32,000 bases of DNA from Mycolicibacterium smegmatis (lineage in GTDB: Bacteria > Actinomycetota > Actinomycetes > Mycobacteriales > Mycobacteriaceae): positions 5,640,001-5,672,000 of the forward strand of contig NZ_LN831039.1 of the NCBI RefSeq assembly GCF_001457595.1. Direction: 5' to 3'. Under the pieces are notes generated by a model, which worked only from the letters and a program-made list of their open reading frames with translations, searched no databases and was not told the DNA's origin. A program made the position numbers and the translations under genes. Shown here one piece after another: positions 329 to 25,759 of the stretch (its first letter is position 1; the number at the start of each line of letters is the position of its first letter).

Positions 329-378
329 GCATGAGGTCTACCCAGCCTTCACGCATGTCGAAACGCACAACAGGCGAA

Positions 379-2069: not shown

Positions 2070-3830
2070 ATGCTGGTAACCATGTCCGAACGGCACGCGC
2101 CGGAACCCGTCGGTAATCCCCTGCGCGGCATCTTCGTGGTCAACCGGGTCGCGGGGCGCTGGCCGTTCGCGCTGCGTGCGGCGATCTGCATGGCGGTGCC
2201 GGTGCTGGTCGGCTGGTCGGCCGGGAACACGTCCGCCGGCCTGATCGCCACCATCGGCGGGTTCACGTCGCTCTACGGCAGCGGACGGCCCTACCTCAAT
2301 CGCGGTGTGTTCCTCGGCGGCGTGGCGGTGACGTTCGCGGTGGTGGTGGCCCTCGGCGACTGGGCGTCGCGGCACGTGTGGCTCGGCGTGGCCACAGTGA
2401 CCGTGATCGCGATGGTCACGGTGCTGGTGTGCCACGCGTTGTCGGTCGGGCCGCCAGGGGCGTACATGTTCGTGCTGGCCTGCGCGGCGGGGACCGGCGC
2501 GCCCGGCACCGCCGACCTGGGCCCGGTGCGGATGGCGTTGCTGGTGCTCGCGGGTGGATCGTTCGCGTGGTGCGTGCACATGCTGGGTGCCCTGATCCGC
2601 CCGCGCGGTCCGGAGAGGGCCGCGGTGCGCGACGCCGCGCTGGCGATCGCCGAGTACATCGACAGCATCGGCGGCGACGCGAATGCCGAAGGGCAGGCCC
2701 GCCACCGCGCGGCCACGCTGCTGCACACCGCATGGGTGACGCTCGTGACGTTCCAGCCCGTGCAACCGAAACCCGATCAGGCGCTGTACCGGCTGCGGGT
2801 GGTCAACCGGCGGTTGCATGTGCTTTTAGCCGACGCGATGCGCGCCGCCGACGCAGGCACCGCTCCCCCACCCGGCGGTGCCGCGTTCGCCCGCGAACTC
2901 GCGGCCATCCCCCCGCTCACCGATGAGCATGGCGCTGAAGGCGTTCCGCTCGGCAGGCCCGGCGCGGGCCAACTGCTGCGCCAGGCGCTGCGCCCGGGGT
3001 CGATGTCGCTGCGACTGGCCGCGAGAGTCGCTGTGGCCGTGGCGATCTCAGGGGCCATCGCGGTCGGGTTCGCCGAGGCGCTCGCGATCGACCGCGCCTA
3101 CTGGGCGATGGCCGCGGCAGTGCTCATGCTGCACCAGGGTTTCGCGTGGGTGCGCACCGTGACCCGCAGCGTCGAACGCATGGTGGGCACATGGCTGGGC
3201 CTCGGTGTCGCGGGCGCGATCCTCGCGGTGCATCCGCAGGGCGTCTGGCTCGCGCTGACCATCGGGGTGCTGCAGTTCGTCATCGAGATGTACGTGGTGC
3301 GCAACTACACCCTGGCCGTCGTGTTCATCACCCCGGCCGCGCTGACCATCTCGTCCGGCGGTGCGGCGATCACCGATCTCGGTGCGCTCCTGTGGGCCCG
3401 CGGTGTGGACACGCTGATCGGTTGTGCGGTGGCGCTTCTCGCCTACCGGGCGACGCAGCGAATGCGCGCCCCGACGGCATTGTCGACGGCGATCACGCGG
3501 ACCCTCGACGCGGTCGACGCGACCCTGCCCCACCTCGGCGCCGGCGCGGCGACCACCGGTGCGGCCCGCACCCACCGCCGCGACCTCCACGTGCGCGCGA
3601 TGGCGCTGCTGCCGTCATACGACGCCGCGGTCGGCGGTTCGGCCGCCCAACGGCGCGCGGCAGAACGGTTGTGGCCCACGGTCGTCGCCGCCGAGCAGCT
3701 GGCGTACCGCACGCTGGCGGCGTGCTGGGCACTCGAACGCGACGGCGACGTCGACGCGGCGCGCGACACTGCCGACGCACTGGCCGAGCAGGCCTCAGAC
3801 GTTCGCGGCCGCCTTGACGAGGGACAGTAG
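2070..3830 (+). CDS. FUSC / aromatic-acid-exporter family integral membrane protein
   Basis: It has multiple TM segments in two blocks (AICMAVPVLVGW..., AVAVAISGAIAVGF...) and a C-terminal soluble helical region. The start is uncertain: ATG 2070, ATG 2082 or GTG 1989. 2070 leaves a 30-nt divergent gap to the glycosylase gene. Confidence 0.75.
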   Translation: MLVTMSERHAPEPVGNPLRGIFVVNRVAGRWPFALRAAICMAVPVLVGWSAGNTSAGLIATIGGFTSLYGSGRPYLNRGVFLGGVAVTFAVVVALGDWASRHVWLGVATVTVIAMVTVLVCHALSVGPPGAYMFVLACAAGTGAPGTADLGPVRMALLVLAGGSFAWCVHMLGALIRPRGPERAAVRDAALAIAEYIDSIGGDANAEGQARHRAATLLHTAWVTLVTFQPVQPKPDQALYRLRVVNRRLHVLLADAMRAADAGTAPPPGGAAFARELAAIPPLTDEHGAEGVPLGRPGAGQLLRQALRPGSMSLRLAARVAVAVAISGAIAVGFAEALAIDRAYWAMAAAVLMLHQGFAWVRTVTRSVERMVGTWLGLGVAGAILAVHPQGVWLALTIGVLQFVIEMYVVRNYTLAVVFITPAALTISSGGAAITDLGALLWARGVDTLIGCAVALLAYRATQRMRAPTALSTAITRTLDAVDATLPHLGAGAATTGAARTHRRDLHVRAMALLPSYDAAVGGSAAQRRAAERLWPTVVAAEQLAYRTLAACWALERDGDVDAARDTADALAEQASDVRGRLDEGQ

Positions 3831-4184
3831 CCAACTGACGACCGACAGCACGATGGCCGCCCAGATCGCGGTCCACCAGAAGTCGTCGATGTGCAGACCC
3901 CAGTGCGTGGTGTGGTCGGTGATCTGCGACGTGATCCACAGCATCAGCGCGTTGATGACGATGTGGAACAGTCCGAGCGTGAGGATGTAGAGCGGGATCG
4001 ACAGGATCTGCACGATCGGCTTGATGATCGCGTTGACCAACCCGAAGATCACCGCGACCACGAAGATGATGCCGACCCGTGTCAGCGTCGAGTCACCACC
4101 GACGAAGCTCATCCCCGGGACGATGAGAGTGACCACCCAGAGCGCGAATCCGGTCAGTGCGGCGCGCAACAGAAATGAGCTCAT
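3795..4184 (-). CDS. Small 4-TM membrane protein, phage-holin-4-like family (Pfam PF04020-like)
   Basis: The 129-aa protein contains LVNAIIKPIVQILSIPLYILTLGLFHIVINALMLWITS, typical of this family as I remember it. It starts 6 nt downstream of the cobF stop. Confidence 0.7.
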   Translation of the reverse strand: MSSFLLRAALTGFALWVVTLIVPGMSFVGGDSTLTRVGIIFVVAVIFGLVNAIIKPIVQILSIPLYILTLGLFHIVINALMLWITSQITDHTTHWGLHIDDFWWTAIWAAIVLSVVSWLLSLVKAAANV

Positions 4185-4190
4185 GATGGC

Positions 4191-4931
4191 TCAGTCTGCC
4201 GAGCGCAGCAGGTAGGTGTCCATGATCCAGCCGTGGCGTGTCCTGGCCTCGGCGCGCATGCGCACGATGTCCTCTGCCACGTCGCCGACCGTGCCGGCCA
4301 CCAAAAGTTCGTCGGGCGTGCCCAGATAGGCGCCCCACCAGATCCGCGTGCGCGGATCGCACGTGCGGAACGAGCAGTCCGCGTCGAGCATCACCACGGC
4401 GCTGCCGGTCAGGCCGTGCTCGCGAAGGCGCCGGCCGGTGGTGATCAGGACCGGTTCGCCGACGTCGTTGAGCGGGATGCGGTGACGCGCCGTGAGTGCC
4501 TGGATCGCGGTCACACCGGGAATCACGTCGTAGTCGAATTCGACGTGCTCGCCGACCATCTCGAGGATGCGCAGGGTGCTGTCGTACAGCGACGGGTCGC
4601 CCCACGCCAGGAACGCGCCCACGCCGTCGGGTCCGAGTTCGCTCTCGATCGCGCGCGCCCAGATGCGTGCGCGTTCGGCATGCCAGTCCGCGACGATCTG
4701 CCGGTAGTCACCATCTTCGGCCCGTTTCGGGTCGGCGAGTTCGACGAAGCGGTAACGGGCCTCGGTGATGAACCGCTCGCAGATCAACCGCCGCAGCGCC
4801 ACCAGTTCGTCCTTCGATTGGCCCTTGTCCATGGCGAAGAACACCTCGGTGTCGTTGAGCGCGGCGACGGCCTGCGCGGTGACGTAGTCCGGATCTCCGG
4901 CTCCGATACCGATGACGTGGATGCGACGCAC
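4191..4931 (-). CDS. cobF: Precorrin-6A synthase (deacetylating), tetrapyrrole methylase superfamily
   Basis: The 246-aa protein has IHVIGIGAGDPDYVT, GDPSLYDS and VIPGVTA, and its length is typical of CobF. Confidence 0.8.
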   Translation of the reverse strand: MRRIHVIGIGAGDPDYVTAQAVAALNDTEVFFAMDKGQSKDELVALRRLICERFITEARYRFVELADPKRAEDGDYRQIVADWHAERARIWARAIESELGPDGVGAFLAWGDPSLYDSTLRILEMVGEHVEFDYDVIPGVTAIQALTARHRIPLNDVGEPVLITTGRRLREHGLTGSAVVMLDADCSFRTCDPRTRIWWGAYLGTPDELLVAGTVGDVAEDIVRMRAEARTRHGWIMDTYLLRSAD

Positions 4932-4986
4932 ACGCGAAGGCTAACGACCCGACCGTCGTTACCCCAAGTACCCGGTACCGCTGGTA

Positions 4987-5015
4987 TTGACTTGTCGATC
5001 TTCCTTGCCTACCTT
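4987..5015 (+). promoter_or_regulatory. Candidate SigA-type promoter for the diiron oxygenase gene
   Basis: TTGACT (4987-4992), a 17-nt spacer, then TACCTT (5010-5015, fits TANNNT), about 34 nt before the GTG at 5049. A near-palindrome cctaccttcgaagtagg (5008-5024) overlaps the -10. Confidence 0.35.
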
Positions 5016-5048
5016 CGAAGTAGGAACCCGACGAAGGGAACGTCAACG

Positions 5049-6278
5049 GTGACCACTTCGGTTCGATCTGCCGCCACCCGCGATGAGTACGCCGAACGCC
5101 TGCTGAAGGGCTCGGTGAAGAGGTCTTATGCCCCGGTCGTCGACATCGAATGGGACACGCCGCTGGAGCCCGACAAGTTCTTCCTGCCGCCCAAGCTCGT
5201 GTCGCTGTACGGAACACCGTTGTGGGAGAGCATGTCCCGCGAACAGCAGATCGAACTGTCGCGCCAGGAGCTGGCCAACACCCTGTCGGCGGGCATCTGG
5301 TTCGAGAACATCCTCAACCAGGCGCTGTTGCGCAAGATGATGCACCAGGACCCGACGGCCCGCGCGACGCACTACGAGCTCACCGAACTCGGCGACGAGA
5401 CCCGGCACATGGTGATGTTCGGCCGGGCCATCGAGCGCATAGGCGCCAAACCGGTCCGCCCGCGGCTGTACCAGCGCATGATCATCAACACGCTGCCGTT
5501 CTTCTTCCGCGGTTCGGTGTTGTGGGTGGCCGCGCTGATCGGCGAGGAGATCTTCGATTCACTGCAGCGGCAGATGATGGACGATCCCGAACTCCAGCCG
5601 TTCGTGCAGCGGGTCATGCGCATCCACGTCACCGAGGAAGCGCGGCACATCCAGTTCGCGCGCGACGGCCTGCGCAAGCGCACGTCGGACATGGGGTGGC
5701 CCACGCGCGTGTGGGTGAGCAACCTCAACGGCCTCGGCGGCCTGTTCTTCCGCCACCTGTTCAGCCACCCGATCCAGTACCGGCGCGCAGGCCTCGACGG
5801 CCGCGCGGGCCGGCGCCTCGCCAGGGCCAGCGCACACCGCCATGAGGTGCAGGTCGCCGGGTTCGCCCCGCTTGCGGCGTTCCTCGAGGAGGTCGGCCTG
5901 ATGGGCCGCATCGGGCGACGGATGTGGCGGCGCTCCGGATTCCTGCCGCAGGACCACACCCCCACCGTGCGTCACCGCGGCATCGCCGCGGGGACCGAAC
6001 CCGCGATCGACGAGGACGTGTACGACGGCTTCGCGGTCCTCGACAACGGCGATCGTGACAGCCGGGTCCGTGTCCGTCTGACCGGCCACCTCGACCCGAT
6101 CGACGGCCGGTACCACTGGCAGGGCTCGATACTCGACGCCGACATGGTCGCGGGCACCGGGCCCGTGCGGTTGACCATCGGGCAGCGCAGTGCCGACGCG
6201 CGCATCGTCGAACGCACGGCCCAGAGCACGTACACCATCGCCGGTGTCGGCGAACCCCCGTTCACGCTCGCCGAGTAA
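5049..6278 (+). CDS. AurF-like diiron oxygenase fused to a C-terminal DUF4873-like domain
   Basis: The GTG at 5049 is in frame with the 681-aa ORF and is preceded by gaaggga 8 nt upstream. The upstream part of that ORF is antisense to cobF. Two E..RH iron-ligand motifs are present (LGDETRHMVMF and HVTEEARHIQF). The C-terminus reads VYDGFAVLDNGD...LDPIDGRYHWQG...TIAGVGEPPF. Confidence 0.8.
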   Translation: MTTSVRSAATRDEYAERLLKGSVKRSYAPVVDIEWDTPLEPDKFFLPPKLVSLYGTPLWESMSREQQIELSRQELANTLSAGIWFENILNQALLRKMMHQDPTARATHYELTELGDETRHMVMFGRAIERIGAKPVRPRLYQRMIINTLPFFFRGSVLWVAALIGEEIFDSLQRQMMDDPELQPFVQRVMRIHVTEEARHIQFARDGLRKRTSDMGWPTRVWVSNLNGLGGLFFRHLFSHPIQYRRAGLDGRAGRRLARASAHRHEVQVAGFAPLAAFLEEVGLMGRIGRRMWRRSGFLPQDHTPTVRHRGIAAGTEPAIDEDVYDGFAVLDNGDRDSRVRVRLTGHLDPIDGRYHWQGSILDADMVAGTGPVRLTIGQRSADARIVERTAQSTYTIAGVGEPPFTLAE

Positions 6279-6393: not shown

Positions 6394-7407
6394 ATGACAA
6401 ATTTCGATTCAAAGCACGGGGTGGTCGCGATCGGCGCATCGGCCGGTGGTGTGGAAGCGTTGACTCGGTTGGCTGCCAACCTGTCTCGCGATCTTTCCTA
6501 TGCCGTCGTGGTAGTCCTCCACATGCCTGCCAATGCACCCAGCGTGCTGGCCAGAATTCTCGATCGCGCAGGGCCACTCCCGGCGGTCACCGCTGTCGAC
6601 GGCGCCTCCCTGGAGGCAGGCACGATCCACGTCGCCCGGCCCGGCCGCCACCTGATGGTGCACGACGGACACGTCGTGCTCAGCGAAGGACCCACCGAGA
6701 ACGGGCACCGTCCCGCGGTGAATGCACTTTTCCGATCGGTCGCGCTGGCGTAGGGCCCACGTGTGATCGGCGTCCTGTTGTCGGGGGTGCTCGACGACGG
6801 TGTTCTCGGTGCCGCGGCCATCAAGAGACGCGGCGGGCTGGTGATCGCGCAGTCGCCGACAGACGCGCTGTTCCCCGCGATGCCGACGAACGCCATGCAT
6901 GCCGGGGTGGTCGACCATGTTGCGGACGCGGCCGACATGGGTGGGCTGATAAAGCAGCTGAGCGAGCGGACGATCGAGGAGCGCGACATGGAGCCCGACG
7001 ATTCCATGGAACTGGAGAACCGCATCGCCATGGCCGGCAGGTTCTCGACCGATTTCGATTCCGAGGCGCTCGGTCCCCCCTCCGGTTACATCTGCCCGGA
7101 CTGCAACGGGTCACTGTCGACCGTCAGCGAGGGCAACTTCCGCTGCCGCGTGGGGCACGCCTGGACCGCGGACGCGCTGCTGCGGGCGCGGGACCAGGAG
7201 GTCGAGGGCGCGCTGTGGGTCGCGCTGCGCAGCCTGGAGGAGAAGGCGAAGCTGTCGAGGAAGCTCGCGGAGAAGGCCGGCGCAGGGCTGATGGCGCGGC
7301 GGTATGAAGAACTCGCCACAGAGGCCGAGCACGCGGTGTCGGTGCTCAGTGAACGGCTGGCGGAGGTGGGCAGGCAAGTGGGGGACCTCGGTGACCAGAT
7401 CACGTAG
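6394..7407 (+). pseudogene. CheB-type protein-glutamate methylesterase with C-terminal zinc-ribbon/coiled-coil, interrupted by an in-frame TAG at 6751-6753
   Basis: ORFs 6394-6753 and 6763-7407 share a frame (both are 1 mod 3). The catalytic motifs are intact: GASAGG (Ser), VLHMP (His) and LSGVLDDG (Asp). The reading is ...FRSVALA*GPRVIGVLLSG. Downstream there is CPDCNGSL...FRCRVGHAW. Confidence 0.85.
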
Positions 7408-8152
7408 TCCGATCACCATCTCGGTCACCTCCCGCGGCGAGATCACCCTGCTGACCGTCGACGGTGTCCTGGACAGCACCACGTACCGCGAAGTGCGCGA
7501 CACGGTGATCAAAGCCGCGTTGTCCGAACCGCGCGCGGTGGTGGTCAACGTCAGCAGGCTCGTGGTCCCCACCGAAACGGCGTGGTCGGTGTTCACCAGC
7601 GCCCGGTGGCACGTGTGCGTGTGGCCGGATGTCCCGGTGTTGCTCGTATGCGATCATCAGCAGGGTCGTGCCTCCCTATGGCGCAACGGAATTCAACGCT
7701 ACGTTCCGGTGTGCTCGACACTGGACGAGGCGTGCGCGACGGTGCTCGCCGATCGCATGAGCCCACTGCGCCGCCGAGCGCGCGCGCATCTGCCCGCCGT
7801 GCACTCCAGTGTTCGACGGTCGCGGGAATTGGTCACCGACTGGCTGCTCAACTGGTCGCTGACCAAATACATCCCGGTGACCTGCGTGGTCACCGACGCC
7901 CTGGTGGAGAACGTCCTGGAGCACACCCTGAGCGCGCCGAAGATCATGCTCGAGAACCGAGGTGACACCGTCAGCATCGCCGTGGAGGACGAGAGCCCGG
8001 CACCGGCGGTACGTCACGAGGATCCCTACCGTGGCGGCGGCAGGTTGTCGGGCCTGGCCCTGGTGGCCAGCATCGCCCGGTCCTGGGGTTGCACACCGAC
8101 CACGACCGGAAAAACGGTTTGGGCGCTGATCGGTCCCGAGAGTTGCTTCTGA
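7391..8152 (+). CDS. Fusion of a STAS (anti-sigma-antagonist) domain and an RsbW/SpoIIAB-like HATPase (anti-sigma kinase) domain
   Basis: The N-terminal half reads ITISVTSRGEITLLTVDGVLDSTTYREVRD...VVVNVSRLVVPTETAWSVF (STAS-like). The C-terminal half reads SSVRRSRELVTDWL...DALVENVLEH (N-box-like)...SIAVEDESPAP...GRLSGLALVASIARSWG. I chose the GTG at 7391 as the start. It overlaps the CheB-like stop by 17 nt, and there is no in-frame ATG nearer the domain. Confidence 0.65.
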   Translation: MTRSRSPITISVTSRGEITLLTVDGVLDSTTYREVRDTVIKAALSEPRAVVVNVSRLVVPTETAWSVFTSARWHVCVWPDVPVLLVCDHQQGRASLWRNGIQRYVPVCSTLDEACATVLADRMSPLRRRARAHLPAVHSSVRRSRELVTDWLLNWSLTKYIPVTCVVTDALVENVLEHTLSAPKIMLENRGDTVSIAVEDESPAPAVRHEDPYRGGGRLSGLALVASIARSWGCTPTTTGKTVWALIGPESCF

Positions 8153-8199: not shown

Positions 8200-10050
8200 A
8201 TGGAACAGGCCGACGAATCGTTCGAAGCACTGCTGCGCTACATGCGTGACTCGCGTGGGTTCGACTTCACCGGTTACAAACGCACATCGTTGATGCGCCG
8301 CGTGCGGCACCGCATGGACCAGGCGGGTCACGACACGTTCGAGGAATACCTCGACGTATTGCAGGCCAGTTCCGACGAGTTCTCGGCGCTGTTCAACACG
8401 ATCCTCATCAACGTCACGGCGTTCTTCCGCGATCCGGAGGCGTGGGAGTTCATCCGCAGTGACGTGATCCCGCGCATGCTCGCCGAACGCGGACCCGACG
8501 ACCCCATCCGGGTCTGGAGCGCCGGTTGCGCGTCCGGGCAGGAGGCGTAGACGCTGGCGATGCTGCTCGCCGAGGCGCTCGGACCCGACGCCTTCCGTCA
8601 GCGCGTCAAGATCTACGCCACCGATGTCGACGAGGACGCGCTCACCGAGGCACGCGCCGCCTCGTACGACGCGAGAGCCGTCGAATCGGTGCCGCCGACG
8701 CTGTTGTCGACGTACTTCGAACATGTCAACGGCCGCTACGTCTTTCACAAGGACCTGCGACGCGCGGTGATCTTCGGCCGCAACGATCTGGTGAAGGACG
8801 CACCCATCTCGCGGGTCGACCTTCTCGTGTGCCGCAACACGCTGATGTATCTCAATGCCGAGACACAGCGAAACGTCATCAGCCGCTTGCACTTTGCGCT
8901 CGGGGCACAGGGGACGCTGTTCCTCGGCCACGCCGAGATGCTGCTGAGCCATGCCGACCGGTTCGCGCCGCTGAACCTCAAGCACCGGATCTTCCGCAAG
9001 GCCGCGGGGTCGCATTCAGGCATCGAACGTTACGACCCGACCGCCGCGATGTACGACCGTCACGGCGACCTGCCCGGGCTCACCACGGTGCGGGACCTGG
9101 CCTTCCGCGCCAGCCCTGTCGCGCAGATCGTGGTGACCGGCGAGGACACCGTCGCGATGATCAACCAGCAGGCCGAGTCCATTTTCGGGCTCTCGGCCCG
9201 AGACATCGGGCGTCTGCTGCGCGACCTCGAGATCTCCTACCGGCCGGTCGAACTGCGCGCCTACATCGAGCAGTGCAAGGTCGAGCGCCGATCCGCTCGC
9301 ATCCAGGACGTGAAGTGGCAGCGTCCTGGCTCGGAGACCGTGTGGTTCGAGATTCACGTGAACCCACTCGTGGACAACGAGAACGGCTTGCTCGGTGTGT
9401 CCATCGTGTTCTTCGACGTCTCGGCCACCCGCGCGCTGGTCGACAAGGTTGTCCAGACCAACCGCCAGCTCGAGGCGGCCTACGAGGAACTGCAGTCCAC
9501 CAACGAAGAGCTTGAGACCACCAACGAGGAACTTCAGTCGACGGTGGAGGAACTGGAGACCACCAACGAGGAACTCCAGTCCACCAACGAAGAACTCGAG
9601 ACCATGAACGAGGAGTTGCAGTCCACCAACGACGAACTGCACACCATCAACGACACGCTGCGTGACCGCAGCATCGAACTCGAGGACGCACGGACCTTCC
9701 TCGATTCGATGGTGAACTCGATCCAGCTGGGGATGGTGGTCGTCGACCGCGAGATGCACGTGGTGGTGTGGAACCGGCACTGCGAGGACCTGTGGGGTCT
9801 GCGCGCCGACGAGACCGTGGGAACCCCGTTGACGTCGCTGGACATCGGCCTGCCGCTCGATCAGGTGCGGCCGCTGATCGGGAACGCCTTCGTCGACGCC
9901 GGCGACCCGGGCGAGGTCGTCGTCGATGCGGTCAACCGGCGCGGACGTGCCGCGCGCATCCGGGTCACGTGCGCGCCGTTCCGGTCCCCCGAGGGCGGCG
10001 TGAAGGGTGCCTTGTTGTTGATGGAGGACCAGCTCGCGGCGCACTCCTAG
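8200..10050 (+). pseudogene. CheR-type SAM-dependent protein-glutamate methyltransferase with PAS - heptad coiled-coil - PAS, interrupted by an in-frame TAG at 8548-8550
   Basis: ORFs 8089-8550 and 8560-10050 share a frame. The N-terminus is FEALLRYMRDSRGFDFTGYKRTSLMRRVRHRM (CheR N-domain). The SAM motif reads IRVWSAGCASGQEA*TLAMLL where homologues have GEE(A/P)Y. DLLVCRNTLMYL follows, then two PAS-like segments. The likely start is the ATG at 8200 (MEQADESFE). Confidence 0.85.
9484..9651 (+). repeat. 8 x 21-nt (heptad) tandem repeat encoding EELQSTN/EELETTN
   Basis: The units are EELQSTN, EELETTN, EELQSTV, EELETTN, EELQSTN, EELETMN, EELQSTN and DELHTIN, read directly from 9484-9651. Confidence 0.9.
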
Positions 10051-11225: not shown

Positions 11226-12110
11226 ATGCGGTTCACATATGCCGAAGCAATGACCGATCCCACCTACTACATCCCGCTCGCGCAAGCGGCCGAGGCCGCC
11301 GGATACGACGCCATGACCATTCCGGACAGCGTCGCCTATCCGCTCGAATCCGACTCCAAGTACCCGTACACCCCCGACGGCAACCGCGAGTTCCTCGACG
11401 GCAAGGCGTTCATCGAGGCGTTCGTGCTGGCGTCGGCCCTGTGCGCGGCGACCACGACGCTGAACTTCAACTTCTTCGTGCTCAAGCTGCCGATCCGCCC
11501 GCCTGCCCTGGTGGCCAAACAGGCCGGATCGCTCAACGCACTGTTCGACAACCGTCTGGGTCTCGGCGTCGGCACCAGCCCGTGGCCCGAGGATTACGAG
11601 TTGATGGGCGTGCCGTTCGCCAAACGCGGCAAACGCATGGACGAGTGCATCGACATCATCCGCGGGCTGACCACCGGCGAGTACTTCGAGTACCACGGCG
11701 AGTTCTACGACATCGCCAAGACCAAGATGACACCAGCGCCGTCCAAGCCCGTGCCGATCCTGGTCGGTGGCCACGCCGACGCCGCGCTGCGCCGTGCCGC
11801 ACGCTGCGACGGTTGGATGCACGGCGGCGGCGAGCCCGAGGAACTCGACCGACTCCTCGCGCGGCTCAAGCAGTTCCGTGAAGAGCACGCCGAAAAGACC
11901 GGCGAGGCACCGAGTGAGGACTTCCAGATCCACGTCATCTCGATCGACGCGTTCACCGTCGACGGCATCAAACGCCTTGAGGACAAAGGCGTCACGGATG
12001 TCATCGTCGGCTTCCGCATCCCCTACATCGAGGGCCAGGACACCGAGCCGCTGGACAAGAAGATCCGCAACCTCGAGTGGTTCGCCGAGAACGTGATCGC
12101 CAAGGTGTGA
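11226..12110 (+). CDS. Luciferase-like (LLM class) F420-dependent oxidoreductase
   Basis: MRFTYAEAMTDP..., LGLGVGTSPWPEDYELMGVPFAKRGKRMDECIDIIRGL and GEFYDI are typical of the LLM/F420 Rv2161c-like subfamily. A GTG two codons upstream (11220) is an alternative start. Confidence 0.8.
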   Translation: MRFTYAEAMTDPTYYIPLAQAAEAAGYDAMTIPDSVAYPLESDSKYPYTPDGNREFLDGKAFIEAFVLASALCAATTTLNFNFFVLKLPIRPPALVAKQAGSLNALFDNRLGLGVGTSPWPEDYELMGVPFAKRGKRMDECIDIIRGLTTGEYFEYHGEFYDIAKTKMTPAPSKPVPILVGGHADAALRRAARCDGWMHGGGEPEELDRLLARLKQFREEHAEKTGEAPSEDFQIHVISIDAFTVDGIKRLEDKGVTDVIVGFRIPYIEGQDTEPLDKKIRNLEWFAENVIAKV

Positions 12111-14651: not shown

Positions 14652-14697
14652 AAACAATCGGCCGCACAATGTTGTGCGGCCGATTGTTTTGTTTTTC
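14652..14697 (+). terminator. Intrinsic terminator: 18-bp perfect inverted repeat followed by a T-tract
   Basis: aaacaatcggccgcacaa (14652-14669) pairs with ttgtgcggccgattgttt (14672-14689), followed by tgtttttc. It is preceded by a smaller hairpin caaaccg-taatg-cggtttg (14617-14635). Confidence 0.7.
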
Positions 14698-14710
14698 TAT
14701 GTACCGGGTA
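14686..14710 (+). promoter_or_regulatory. Second candidate SigF-type promoter (upstream of the sugar porter)
   Basis: GTTT (14686-14689), a 16-nt spacer, then GGGTA (14706-14710). The -35 lies inside the terminator T-tract, so a chance match is plausible. Confidence 0.25.
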
Positions 14711-14751: not shown

Positions 14752-16168
14752 ATGAGCACCGATACCCAAGACTCGGCGGACGCGCGAGCGAAGACGCCAG
14801 GACAACTCACCGGCGCGGTCGTGATCGTCGCACTCGTGTCCGCGGTGTCGGGCATGCTCTACGGCTACGACACGGGCATCATCTCCGGAGCCCTGCTCCA
14901 GATCACCAAGGACTTCTCGATCGCCGAGGCCTGGAAACAGGTGATCGCGGCGAGCATCCTTCTCGGCGCCGTCATCGGCGCGCTGGTGTGCAGGTCACCT
15001 GTCACAGAAACGGGGCCGCAAGGGCACACTGCTGATGCTGGCCGTGGTGTTCGTGATCGGCTCGCTGTGGTGCGCGATCTCCCCCAACCCGGTGCTGCTG
15101 TCGGTCGGTCGGTTGGTGTTGGGATTCGCGGTCGGCGGCGCCACACAGACCGCGCCGATGTACGTTGCGGAACTCTCGCCGCCGAAGTACCGCGGCCGGC
15201 TGGTGCTGTGTTTCCAGATCGCGATCGGCGTGGGCATCGTGATCGCGACGATAGTCGGTGCGTCCGAACACATTCCGTGGCGCTGGTCGATCGGCGCCGC
15301 GGCTGTCCCGGCCGCGATCATGCTGGTCCTGCTACTGCGCCTGCCGGAGAGCCCGCGCTGGCTGATCAAGGACGGCGATCCCGACAAGGCACGCGAGGTG
15401 CTCGAGCGGGTGCGGCCCGACGGTTACGACATCGACGGTGAACTCGACGAGATGACCACGCTGGTGCGCAAGGAGCAGACCGCGAAGACCCGCGGCTGGC
15501 CCGGCCTGCGCGCGGCCTGGGTACGGCCCGCACTCATACTCGGTTGCGGCATAGCGATTTTCACGCAACTCAGCGGTATCGAGATGATCATCTACTACTC
15601 GCCGACCATCCTCACCGACAACGGATTCTCCGAATCGGTGGCGCTTCAGGTCTCGGTCGCGCTCGGCGTGAGCTACCTGGTGGCGCAACTCGTGGGCCTG
15701 TCGATCATCGACAAGGTCGGGCGGCGCCGGCTCACGCTCATCATGATCCCGGGTGCGGCCGTGAGCCTGTTCGTGCTCGGCACGCTGTTCGCCACCGGCC
15801 ACAGCGGCCGCGACTCGGTGCCGTTCATCGTCGCGTGCCTCGTGGTGTTCATGCTGTTCAACGCAGGCGGCCTGCAACTCATGGGTTGGCTGACCGGTTC
15901 GGAGACCTACCCGCTGGCGGTGCGTCCGGCTGGGACGGCCGCACAGTCGGCGGCCTTGTGGGGCACCAACCTGCTCATCACGCTGACCCTGCTGACGCTG
16001 ATCAGCGGGATCGGCGTGGGGCCCGCGATGTGGCTCTACGGGCTGTTCAACGTCGCGGCATGGCTTTTCGTGTACTTCCGGATGCCCGACCTGACCGGCC
16101 GCAGCCTCGAGGAGATCGAGGGCAAGCTGCGCGACGGCAAGTTCCGCCCCGCCGACTTCGCGCGCTGA
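14752..16168 (+). pseudogene. MFS sugar porter (sugar/H+ symporter family) with a +1 frameshift near 14985-14993
   Basis: The N-terminal frame reads MSTDTQ...SGMLYGYDTGIISGALLQI...ILLGAVIGALVC. It continues only in the +1 frame as (A)GHLSQKRGRKGTLLMLAVVFVIGSLWCA...GRLVLGFAVGGATQTAPMYVAELSPPKYRG...PESPRWL...PETKGRSLEEIE-like end. ORFs 14644-15441 and 15035-16168 overlap in different frames. Confidence 0.85.
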
Positions 16169-16190: not shown

Positions 16191-16817
16191 ATGACGCTGA
16201 CGGTCGCCTCGATCGACATCGCCGATCCGGCCGCGGCCTGGGCACGGGCCGGTTTCACGGTCGACGACGGCGTGTGCCACGTCGGCGGGGTACGCATCCG
16301 GTTGGGTGCGGCGGGTACCGGGATCACCGGATGGGTGCTGCGGGGCGTACCCGAACGGGTGACCGATCTGGACGGCATCCCGACGTCGCCATCCGACGCA
16401 CCACCGTCGCAGCCTGCGGCCCACGCCAACGGAGTCGTCTCGATCGACCACGTCGTGCTGCTGTCGCCGAACCTGACCCGTACGGTCGGCGCCCTCGCGG
16501 AGCTCGGCGAAGCGCCTCGCCGCGAACGCGACGGCGAGCTGGGCGGGCAGCCGATCCGCCAGATCTTCTTCCGGTTCGGCGAGGTGATCATCGAGGTGGT
16601 GGGTGCACCCGACGCCGTGGGCGACGGACCGTCGTCGCTGTGGGGCATCACGTACGTGGTCGACGACATCGACGCCACCGCAGCATTTTTCGGTGACAAC
16701 GCGCTGCCGGTCAAAGATGCCGTACAGCCCGGCCGCCGGATCGCCACGCTACGTGGCGACCGGCTCGGGCTGAGCGTGCGCAGCGCGGTGATCTCAGCGC
16801 CCGCGCGTCGGTGGTGA
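16191..16817 (+). CDS. VOC/glyoxalase-like domain protein
   Basis: The protein is 208 aa. It contains VVSIDHVVLLSPNL... and IFFRFGEVIIEVVG, with the beta-alpha-beta-beta-beta type pattern. The family call is from memory only. Confidence 0.6.
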   Translation: MTLTVASIDIADPAAAWARAGFTVDDGVCHVGGVRIRLGAAGTGITGWVLRGVPERVTDLDGIPTSPSDAPPSQPAAHANGVVSIDHVVLLSPNLTRTVGALAELGEAPRRERDGELGGQPIRQIFFRFGEVIIEVVGAPDAVGDGPSSLWGITYVVDDIDATAAFFGDNALPVKDAVQPGRRIATLRGDRLGLSVRSAVISAPARRW

Positions 16818-24395: not shown

Positions 24396-24425
24396 TGATC
24401 CGCCCCGGCATGTCGGGAGGTTCTC

Positions 24426-25379
24426 TTATCTGAGTGCCTCCTCGGCATGAGGGTGCCGTTGGCGATGGTAGTAGAGCGCTTCGGCCCGATCGGGGGTCAG
24501 GTCCTGGCAGTAGCCGTTGGGTCGCTGACGGTTGTAGAAGGCCACCCATTCGGCGGTCCCCAGCGCCAGTTCGGTGGCACCGGGATAGAGCGGCTGGCGG
24601 TCGATGAGTTCGGTCTTGTAGCTGCTGTTCACCGATTCGGCCAGAGCATTATCGAAACTATCCCCGACGGATCCGACTGAAGGCAGGATCCCCTCAGCGG
24701 CCAGACGTTCGGTGAACGCGACCGCGGTGTATTGCGAGCCCGCGTCGCTGTGGTGGATAAGTGAATCCAAAGATGCTGCACCCGAACGCTTTCTGGTGTC
24801 GATAGCGTGGTCGATCGCATCGGTCACCAGCTTCTGGGTCATCTCGGTAGCCACCTTCCAACCCACGATCTTGCGGGCATAGACATCGGTGACGAACGCC
24901 GTGTAGGCCCAGCCGGCACGAGTCCGGCAGTAGGTGAAATCGGCCACCCACAATCGGTCAGGCGCACCGGCGACGAAATTACGCCGGACCCGATCCGGGG
25001 CTCGCGTCGCTGCCGGATCGGCGACGGTGGTGCGCACCCGCCGGCGCTTGCACGCACCCCGCCAACCCATCTCCCGCATGACCCGTTCCACGACACAGCG
25101 CGATACGTCGATACCATTGGTGCGCAATACAATCCATGTCTTACGAGCGCCCAGGACTCGGTACAGACTCTGCGATTGGCGAAGCTGCCAGATCGCATCG
25201 ATCACCTGCGCATCGGCCCAGTCGGCTTTCGAGGGGCCCTGACGGGCGCGGTGGGCGTAATACGTCGACGGGGCGATCGTGACGCCGTACTCGGAAAGCA
25301 CAGCGCACATCGACTCGACACCCCACTTGAGACCATCAACGCCCACCCGCATGTGCTGGTGGGCGCTGATGAACTCCAC
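24426..25379 (-). CDS. IS3-family transposase OrfB (DDE integrase core)
   Basis: It contains RLWVADFTY, HSDAGSQYTA and DNALAESVNSSYKTELI (the D, D and E regions). It lies in the -1 frame relative to orfA, and that frame stays open far upstream of 25379. Confidence 0.9.
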   Translation of the reverse strand: MEFISAHQHMRVGVDGLKWGVESMCAVLSEYGVTIAPSTYYAHRARQGPSKADWADAQVIDAIWQLRQSQSLYRVLGARKTWIVLRTNGIDVSRCVVERVMREMGWRGACKRRRVRTTVADPAATRAPDRVRRNFVAGAPDRLWVADFTYCRTRAGWAYTAFVTDVYARKIVGWKVATEMTQKLVTDAIDHAIDTRKRSGAASLDSLIHHSDAGSQYTAVAFTERLAAEGILPSVGSVGDSFDNALAESVNSSYKTELIDRQPLYPGATELALGTAEWVAFYNRQRPNGYCQDLTPDRAEALYYHRQRHPHAEEALR

Positions 25380-25381
25380 GA

Positions 25382-25708
25382 CTACTGAGAGGGCCGGTCG
25401 AGCTCGGCGGCGAAGAAAACCGAGGCCGCCTTCAAGATCGCGTTGGCCCGCTTGAGTTCGGCATTCTCCCGGCGCAGCTTGCGCAGGACCTCGGATTCCT
25501 CGCTGGTCTGCCCCGCCCGAGAGCCGGCGTCGATCTCAGCCTGGCGGACCCATTTGCGCACCGTTTCGGCAGTACCGACGCCCAGCAGGTCAGCAACCCG
25601 GCCCATCGCCTCCCACTCCGAAACTGTCTCGCTGCGCAGATCGGCCACCATCTGCACCGCCCGCACCTTCAGCTCGTCTGGATACCGCCTCGATGACTTC
25701 GATCCCAC
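25382..25708 (-). CDS. IS3-family transposase OrfA (HTH + leucine-zipper)
   Basis: The protein is 108 aa with a GTG start. It contains [34 protein letters not shown] and [22 protein letters not shown]. Confidence 0.9.
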
Positions 25709-25759
25709 GTGCCCATCCTTCCCAACGGAAGAACTCTCCAGACACGCCGGGGCGGATCA

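Follow-up and report, generated by a model that had tools for sequence, protein, structure and literature searches.

Why does a conserved and otherwise intact CheB-like gene of Mycolicibacterium smegmatis carry an in-frame amber codon, and why does its CheR-like neighbor carry a second one? We addressed these questions in a 32,000-nt stretch of the genome (the window), for which the original prediction had offered three accounts of the cheB stop: a very recent nonsense mutation, a base-call error, or read-through. Only the first of the three has survived, and a sister sequence that is 99.3% identical to the window (L001) still has TAC at this codon. The cheB TAG is very probably an authentic, lineage-specific nonsense mutation, which makes the gene a pseudogene of recent origin, or a severe hypomorph at best.

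The full-length cheB-like frame is interrupted in the window: the TAG lies in frame, at codon 120 counted from the ATG, just where it had been predicted (6742-6762 reads gcg ctg gcg TAG ggc cca cgt). The in-frame stretch beyond it is open, as had also been claimed, over 217 codons (6754-7404), and it contains a 214-aa ORF that begins with GTG. The read-through translation matches the Pfam family CheB_methylest (PF01339) over residues 11-184 (E = 1.5e-52; 178 bits, with a cutoff of 24), and the TAG falls inside this domain, between the catalytic His and Asp. The catalytic motifs on either side of the stop are intact: in alignments to solved CheB structures, S16, H43, and D135 correspond to the triad Ser164/His190/Asp286 of CheB 1A2O, and all three are invariant across 31 homologs. 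We found no Pfam match to a receiver domain (Response_reg, REC) in the protein, and its catalytic domain begins after 10 residues; judged by its predicted domain content, it differs from a canonical CheB in being a CheB-type esterase that stands alone. The 119-aa product of the N-terminal fragment is identical to AFP41838.1 (MSMEI_5397) and CKI33388.1, and the 214-aa C-terminal fragment is annotated as a CDS of its own (AFP41839.1, MSMEI_5398) and occurs on 579 contigs.

Features of the cheB-like/STAS/CheR-PAS module and of nearby elements (window coordinates unless an accession is given)
Feature	Coordinates	Strand	Remarks
SigF-type promoter motif GTTT-N15-GGGTAA	6348-6372	+	22 nt upstream of cheB-like start; putative function
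CheB-type methylesterase gene, whole frame	6394-7407	+	337 codons; ATG 6394; frame closes at 7405-7407
cheB-like N-terminal fragment	6394-6753	+	119 codons + TAG; holds Ser16 and His43 of the triad
Amber codon Y120*, TAC to TAG, cheB-like gene	6751-6753	+	In frame with ATG 6394, codon 120
Same TAG in the mc2155 genome	CP001663.1 5,641,430-5,641,432		
cheB-like C-terminal remainder	6763-7407	+	214-codon ORF; GTG start three codons past TAG; Asp135, Cys-rich motif, coiled-coil tail
STAS-domain/"ATP-binding" protein gene	7391-8152	+	GTG start; 17-nt overlap with cheB 3' end
CheR-PAS methyltransferase gene, whole frame	8200-10050	+	ATG 8200; 616 aa when intact
cheR N-terminal fragment	8200-8550	+	116 codons + TAG; product CKI33442.1, on 30 contigs
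Amber codon Y117*, TAC to TAG, cheR	8548-8550	+	Invariant Tyr of G-x-E-(P/A)-Y motif
cheR C-terminal remainder	8560-10050	+	496-codon ORF; ATG three codons past TAG; rest of SAM domain, PAS, coiled coil, PAS; product CKI33462.1, 32 blocks
Inverted-repeat partner TCTACGCC of GGCGTAGA (8544-8551)	8612-8619	+	Perfected by cheR TAC to TAG, 8 bp
Further SigF-pattern match	339-364	-	
Further SigF-pattern match	14686-14710	+	
IS3-family rve integrase, orfB	24426-25379	-	
IS3-family transposase, orfA	25382-25708	-	

The same lesion in the same GGCGTAG context had been claimed for the CheR-like gene, and this proved correct: the frame reads GAG GCG TAG ACG, and the TAG is codon 117 from the ATG. The product has the Pfam domains CheR_N (PF03705; E = 8e-15) and CheR (PF01739; E = 9.5e-53), followed by two PAS domains around a coiled coil; the linker between the PAS domains (window 9430-9640, residues about 410-480) is a striking near-repeat and forms this coiled coil. 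The claim that the lost residue belongs to a conserved Ala-Tyr-Gly position stands in full for one gene only. Tyr117 of CheR, located after the glycine-rich loop, is Tyr in all 78 species among the matches listed and in solved CheR structures as well, and the codon for this invariant residue is TAG in the window. For CheB, where the residue is aromatic, the claim stands only loosely: Tyr is found only in close relatives, and across the 80 other species among the matches listed, position 120 is Phe in 51, Tyr in 16, His in 10, and another residue in three.

The gene that lies between the two (Pfam STAS, E = 4.3e-5; named "Stas domain protein" or "ATP-binding protein" in the sources) is probably MSMEG_5551, which is described in the literature as a STAS-domain candidate anti-sigma-factor antagonist. 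MSMEG_5551 is reported to be differentially expressed, so the operon appears still to be transcribed in mc2155. With the SigF promoter consensus taken from PMC4694148 and PMC7693655, the pattern GTTT-N15-17-GGGTA has three matches in the window, compared with 0.05 expected. The match upstream of cheB suggests that the operon may be under SigF control; another, at 14686-14710, sits just upstream of a frameshifted sugar-porter gene.

The order cheB-like/STAS/CheR-PAS is syntenic and the module intact in about 80 other mycobacterial species among the matches listed, and in these matches we find no stop codon at CheB 120 (0 out of 80 species) or at CheR 117 (0 out of 78). For the best matches, cross-species identity is higher for CheR (86-88%) than for CheB (about 66-72%), and is about 48% for the STAS protein. 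Outside M. smegmatis, cheR is broken in two metagenome-assembled mycobacterial genomes, by S204* in one (L038; TAG, 7401-7403) and by several TGA codons in the other (L075; 7025-7656), which shows occasional decay of the module elsewhere. These stops were rejected as instances of the same context, since S204* lies in ATT TAG and the others are TGA, neither being GGCGTAG.

Among M. smegmatis strains, the alignment to sister strains that had been proposed as a check finds TAC in L001 at both sites and in L096 at the cheB site. L001, with 99.33% identity to the window across 13.6 kb, retains both genes intact (337 and 616 aa). That the TAG replaces a Tyr codon by a single step is likewise confirmed: the 337-aa protein of P0152 equals the window CheB save for Tyr120, and Tyr is found at this position in the P0001 and P0145 proteins also. 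The cheB TAG is common to the window, mc2155 (L004), L002, L005, L007, and L008, and by exact protein look-up the 119-aa fragment is found on 785 contigs (901 blocks of the collection), including mc2155 CP001663.1. In cheR, the TAG is seen less often (32 blocks) and only in a sub-lineage to which the window belongs: codon 117 is TAG in the window, L003, L006, L007, L008, and L096, and TAC in L001, mc2155, L002, L005, and L094. L003 and L006, both assembled from read sets, are 100% identical to the window across 16.7-20 kb, both TAGs included, and the complete genome CP082846.1 (L089) is identical to it save for one insertion sequence. From mc2155 the window differs by 15 SNPs and one indel in 16.7 kb, and it therefore represents a distinct but very close strain.

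Two further nonsense mutations are found in the same genes. In cheR of L007 and L008 (ERR14205396 and ERR4188247), W82* (TGG to TAG; window 8443-8445, L007 9884-9886) lies on top of Y117*, once more in the context GAG GCG TAG. In one mc2155-type sample (SRR11810786), K284* (AAG to TAG; L094 2060, corresponding to window 7243) interrupts the cheB remainder.

All four combinations of cheB and cheR alleles are seen if L096 is counted, a contig from a JGI metagenome (3300017658; 2915-3928 and 4640-5071) with an intact cheB (TAC) and cheR Y117*. Its cheR also has M39R, the change seen in L007 and L008. This contig may be a chimeric assembly. Since it pairs a cheB TAC with a cheR TAG, a history in which cheB died first and cheR then decayed is weakened by it, with the proviso that the contig is itself possibly chimeric. 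A 1.1-kb stretch of cheR (8358-9492) holds nine of the 15 SNPs that separate the window from mc2155, mostly synonymous ones, and L007 and L008 have mc2155-like flanks around a window-like cheR. This mosaic pattern fits recombination between strains, which may have shuffled the cheB and cheR alleles. The TAG-bearing cheB alleles of mc2155, the window, and L007/L008 are otherwise identical, so decay of the remainder cannot be demonstrated from these strains.

For the nonsense mutation in cheB, we thus observe the base change itself, its ancestral state (TAC), its reproducibility, and its phylogenetic restriction: close relatives have a sense codon at the site, and the TAG recurs in independent sequencing of the lineage. 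Nearby, the strain has two more inactivated genes: that for a sugar porter, by a frameshift, and that for an ABC transporter ATPase, by an insertion sequence that splits it. The likely course of events would begin with a C-to-G transversion that turned TAC into TAG and Tyr120 into an amber codon. Release factor 1 would then end translation after residue 119, and termination there would part Ser16 and His43 from Asp135. With its triad split by the TAG, the CheB-like esterase is most likely inactive, and from the sequence we infer loss of this activity. The sub-lineage of the window would have acquired its second TAC-to-TAG change in cheR (Y117*), and other isolates would have added W82* or K284*. 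The module appears to be in the process of loss in the clade of mc2155, ATCC 607, and the window strain, where it may be dispensable or counter-selected; selection on it is probably relaxed or negative.

The significance of these results is mainly practical. In the standard model mycobacterium, mc2155, the gene of the CheB-like esterase would be null or hypomorphic, and the type-strain-like lineage of the window has lost the CheR partner too. This is a caveat for studies of MSMEG_5551 in SigF partner switching and of mycobacterial CheR/CheB-type methylation.

The two other lesions of the window are of different kinds. The gene for a 471-aa MFS sugar porter (14752-16168) is frameshifted by a one-base insertion, an extra G at 14993 (CAG to CAGG); the complete ORF returns when this G is taken out, and mc2155, L001, L007, L008, L092, and L093 have an intact gene. 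A gene for a MalK-like ABC transporter ATPase is interrupted by an IS3-family insertion sequence about 1.36 kb long (24397-25757), which has the terminal repeats GATCCGCCCCGGC and is flanked by a duplication of (C)ATGTT. The otherwise identical CP082846.1 is without this element, and its ATPase gene is intact (361 aa). In-frame TGA codons at 12108-12110 and 16815-16817 were considered as further interruptions and rejected, as they separate neighboring genes that share a frame by chance.

Perhaps the most puzzling feature of the operon ambers is one that simple random decay does not predict: three out of the four create the same heptamer. GGCGTAG is found at 6747-6753 (cheB Y120*), 8544-8550 (cheR Y117*), and 8439-8445 (the W82* allele), having arisen from TAC, TAC, and TGG, respectively; the fourth allele, K284*, makes GGAGTAG. 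Out of the 307 one-step nonsense changes possible in the three genes, six give GGCGTAG, and the chance of two more such ambers given the first is about 2e-4, a figure to be read with the small number of events (four) and the choice of some loci for being truncated. A common mutational hotspot substrate was rejected, since the starting codons differ (TAC, TGG) and it is the product that is the same. Within cheR, the motif CTACGCC at 8613-8619 is a perfect complement of both amber sites, the arms measuring 8 bp with a 60-nt spacer for Y117* and 7 bp with a 167-nt spacer for W82*. Among the possible nonsense substitutions of cheB and cheR, 1.3% do as well as Y117* (arm of at least 8 bp within 100 nt) and 8.4% as well as W82*. 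Templating by an inverted repeat was rejected for the cheB TAG, for which no partner arm was found; here the change merely creates GGGCCC. The ambers could be non-random, either because a template-switch process writes GGCGTAG or because leaky termination makes this the only tolerated context, but we consider this unlikely. If termination were leaky in this way, M. smegmatis populations would retain segregating cheB and cheR alleles that are hypomorphic and able to revert. As the events number only four and the loci were partly fetched for being truncated, we regard the pattern as an unexplained curiosity, not as a finding.

The fragments might instead form a split working gene, with termination at the TAG, reinitiation at GTG 6763 in cheB and ATG 8560 in cheR, and reassembly of the two polypeptides. 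Termination followed by reinitiation to yield two fragments is conceivable. A start codon stands exactly three codons past the TAG in both genes, although a nearby restart codon is not unexpected, GTG and ATG being frequent in a GC-rich frame. The cheR restart is preceded by GGAGG (8541-8545), but no Shine-Dalgarno-like sequence was found before GTG 6763. When the CheB-like protein is aligned to solved CheB, its break falls between two conserved blocks, FRSVA and IGVLLSG. Against a working enzyme, each fragment would hold only part of the catalytic triad, and the four residues YGPR would be missing. The C-terminal fragment of cheR would have neither the N-terminal helical domain nor the glycine-rich SAM loop as far as the invariant Tyr. 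Deposited annotations list each half as a gene of its own. We found no supporting protein evidence for the locus: none of the locus tags of the module is present in the supplements of M. smegmatis papers on proteins, transcription starts, and the SigF regulon (PMC4821088, PMC4694148, PMC6448022). We consider a working split gene very improbable.

Functional read-through would require a suppressor or a near-cognate tRNA-Tyr, perhaps one favored by GGCG-UAG (the sites GGCGTAGG and GGCGTAGA; the native amber contexts are CTGGCGTAGGGC, GAGGCGTAGACG, and GAGGCGTAGGAG), and would give reduced amounts of full-length CheB and CheR, both alleles being tolerated hypomorphs. A near-cognate tRNA-Tyr would restore Tyr, the residue that two of the ambers replace. 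The frames downstream of the TAGs are intact, and a filter for leaky contexts would give a pattern like that of the heptamer, which three of the four alleles share. However, the stop is not conserved, with TAC in sister strains and no stop in 80 species among the matches listed, and more nonsense mutations (W82*, K284*) pile up in the same genes. ARAGORN finds no tRNA gene, suppressor included, within the 32-kb window. We found no stimulatory RNA structure downstream of either TAG: the folds are no better than those of shuffled controls (z = -0.30 for cheB and -1.50 for cheR). In M. smegmatis, a GFP reporter with Tyr151TAG stays dark unless an orthogonal suppressor tRNA and synthetase are supplied (PMC2825273). 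Read-through at the cheB and cheR TAGs, one of the three alternatives first offered, is therefore not supported, and we give it only a slim chance.

Sequencing or assembly error, with C as the true base, TAC as the codon, and an intact gene, can be dismissed as having next to no probability: the difference is a single base and the first mc2155 sequence did hold 28 interrupted genes that were sequencing errors, but those were all overcalls or undercalls (indels) and never miscalls (PMC1852416), and the identical cheB fragment recurs on its 785 contigs in NCBI complete genomes and many independent read-set assemblies, L003 and L006 matching the window across 16.7-20 kb. The PCR and Sanger resequencing that had been suggested for the locus was in fact done in 2007. 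In that study (Deshayes et al. 2007; Genome Biol 8:R20, PMC1852416), both strands of PCR products were resequenced for 73 interrupted coding sequences of mc2155, and ICDS0071 (ORFs 5527-5528), a "protein-glutamate methylesterase", was tabulated among the authentic mutations, present in mc2155 and in its progenitor ATCC 607. The gene-order numbering fits our locus: the next entry, ICDS0072 (ORFs 5533-5534), corresponds to a luciferase-like gene here, about 5 kb downstream. A base-call error is thus refuted for the cheB TAG by the contigs and by resequencing in two strains. The cheB interruption is already known: it has appeared in print as an authentic ICDS, and annotations give its two pieces as split CDSs. 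It is an ordinary, documented lesion, with no new kind of decoding.

Compared with known systems, the esterase domain of the window protein is homologous to that of the canonical chemotaxis CheB of Salmonella and E. coli (1CHD, 1A2O; E about 1e-20). In contrast to canonical CheB, the window protein has no N-terminal receiver domain and has an extra C-terminal Cys-rich and coiled-coil region, and its gene belongs to a non-flagellated mycobacterium, with a STAS-domain protein as operon partner. The residue aligned to the mutated position 120 is Ala in canonical CheB. The CheR_N and SAM-binding domains of canonical CheR (1AF7, 5FTW) match the window CheR with E-values of 1e-27 to 1e-34, and the invariant Tyr of their G-(E/Q)-E-P-Y motif aligns to the mutated Tyr; the window CheR differs in being fused to two PAS domains split by a coiled coil (616 aa) and in its interruption at codon 117.

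With programmed read-through or natural amber suppression, the locus shares an in-frame UAG within an otherwise intact conserved gene, but the stops of the window are conserved in no ortholog and have neither a suppressor tRNA nor a stimulatory structure in the window. Quasi-palindrome (template-switch) mutagenesis has been described in E. coli. The likeness here is that both cheR ambers turn an imperfect inverted repeat with CTACGCC into a perfect one; the differences are the short cheR arms, their long spacers (60 and 167 nt), and the cheB amber without a partner. The closest known counterpart is ICDS0071 of mc2155 (MSMEI_5397 and MSMEI_5398), which has the same gene, the same TAG, and the same 119-aa and 214-aa products. 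Deshayes et al. (2007) described neither the type of lesion in ICDS0071 nor the cheR allele, and to the mc2155 state the window strain adds the cheR amber, the frameshifted sugar porter, and the IS insertion.
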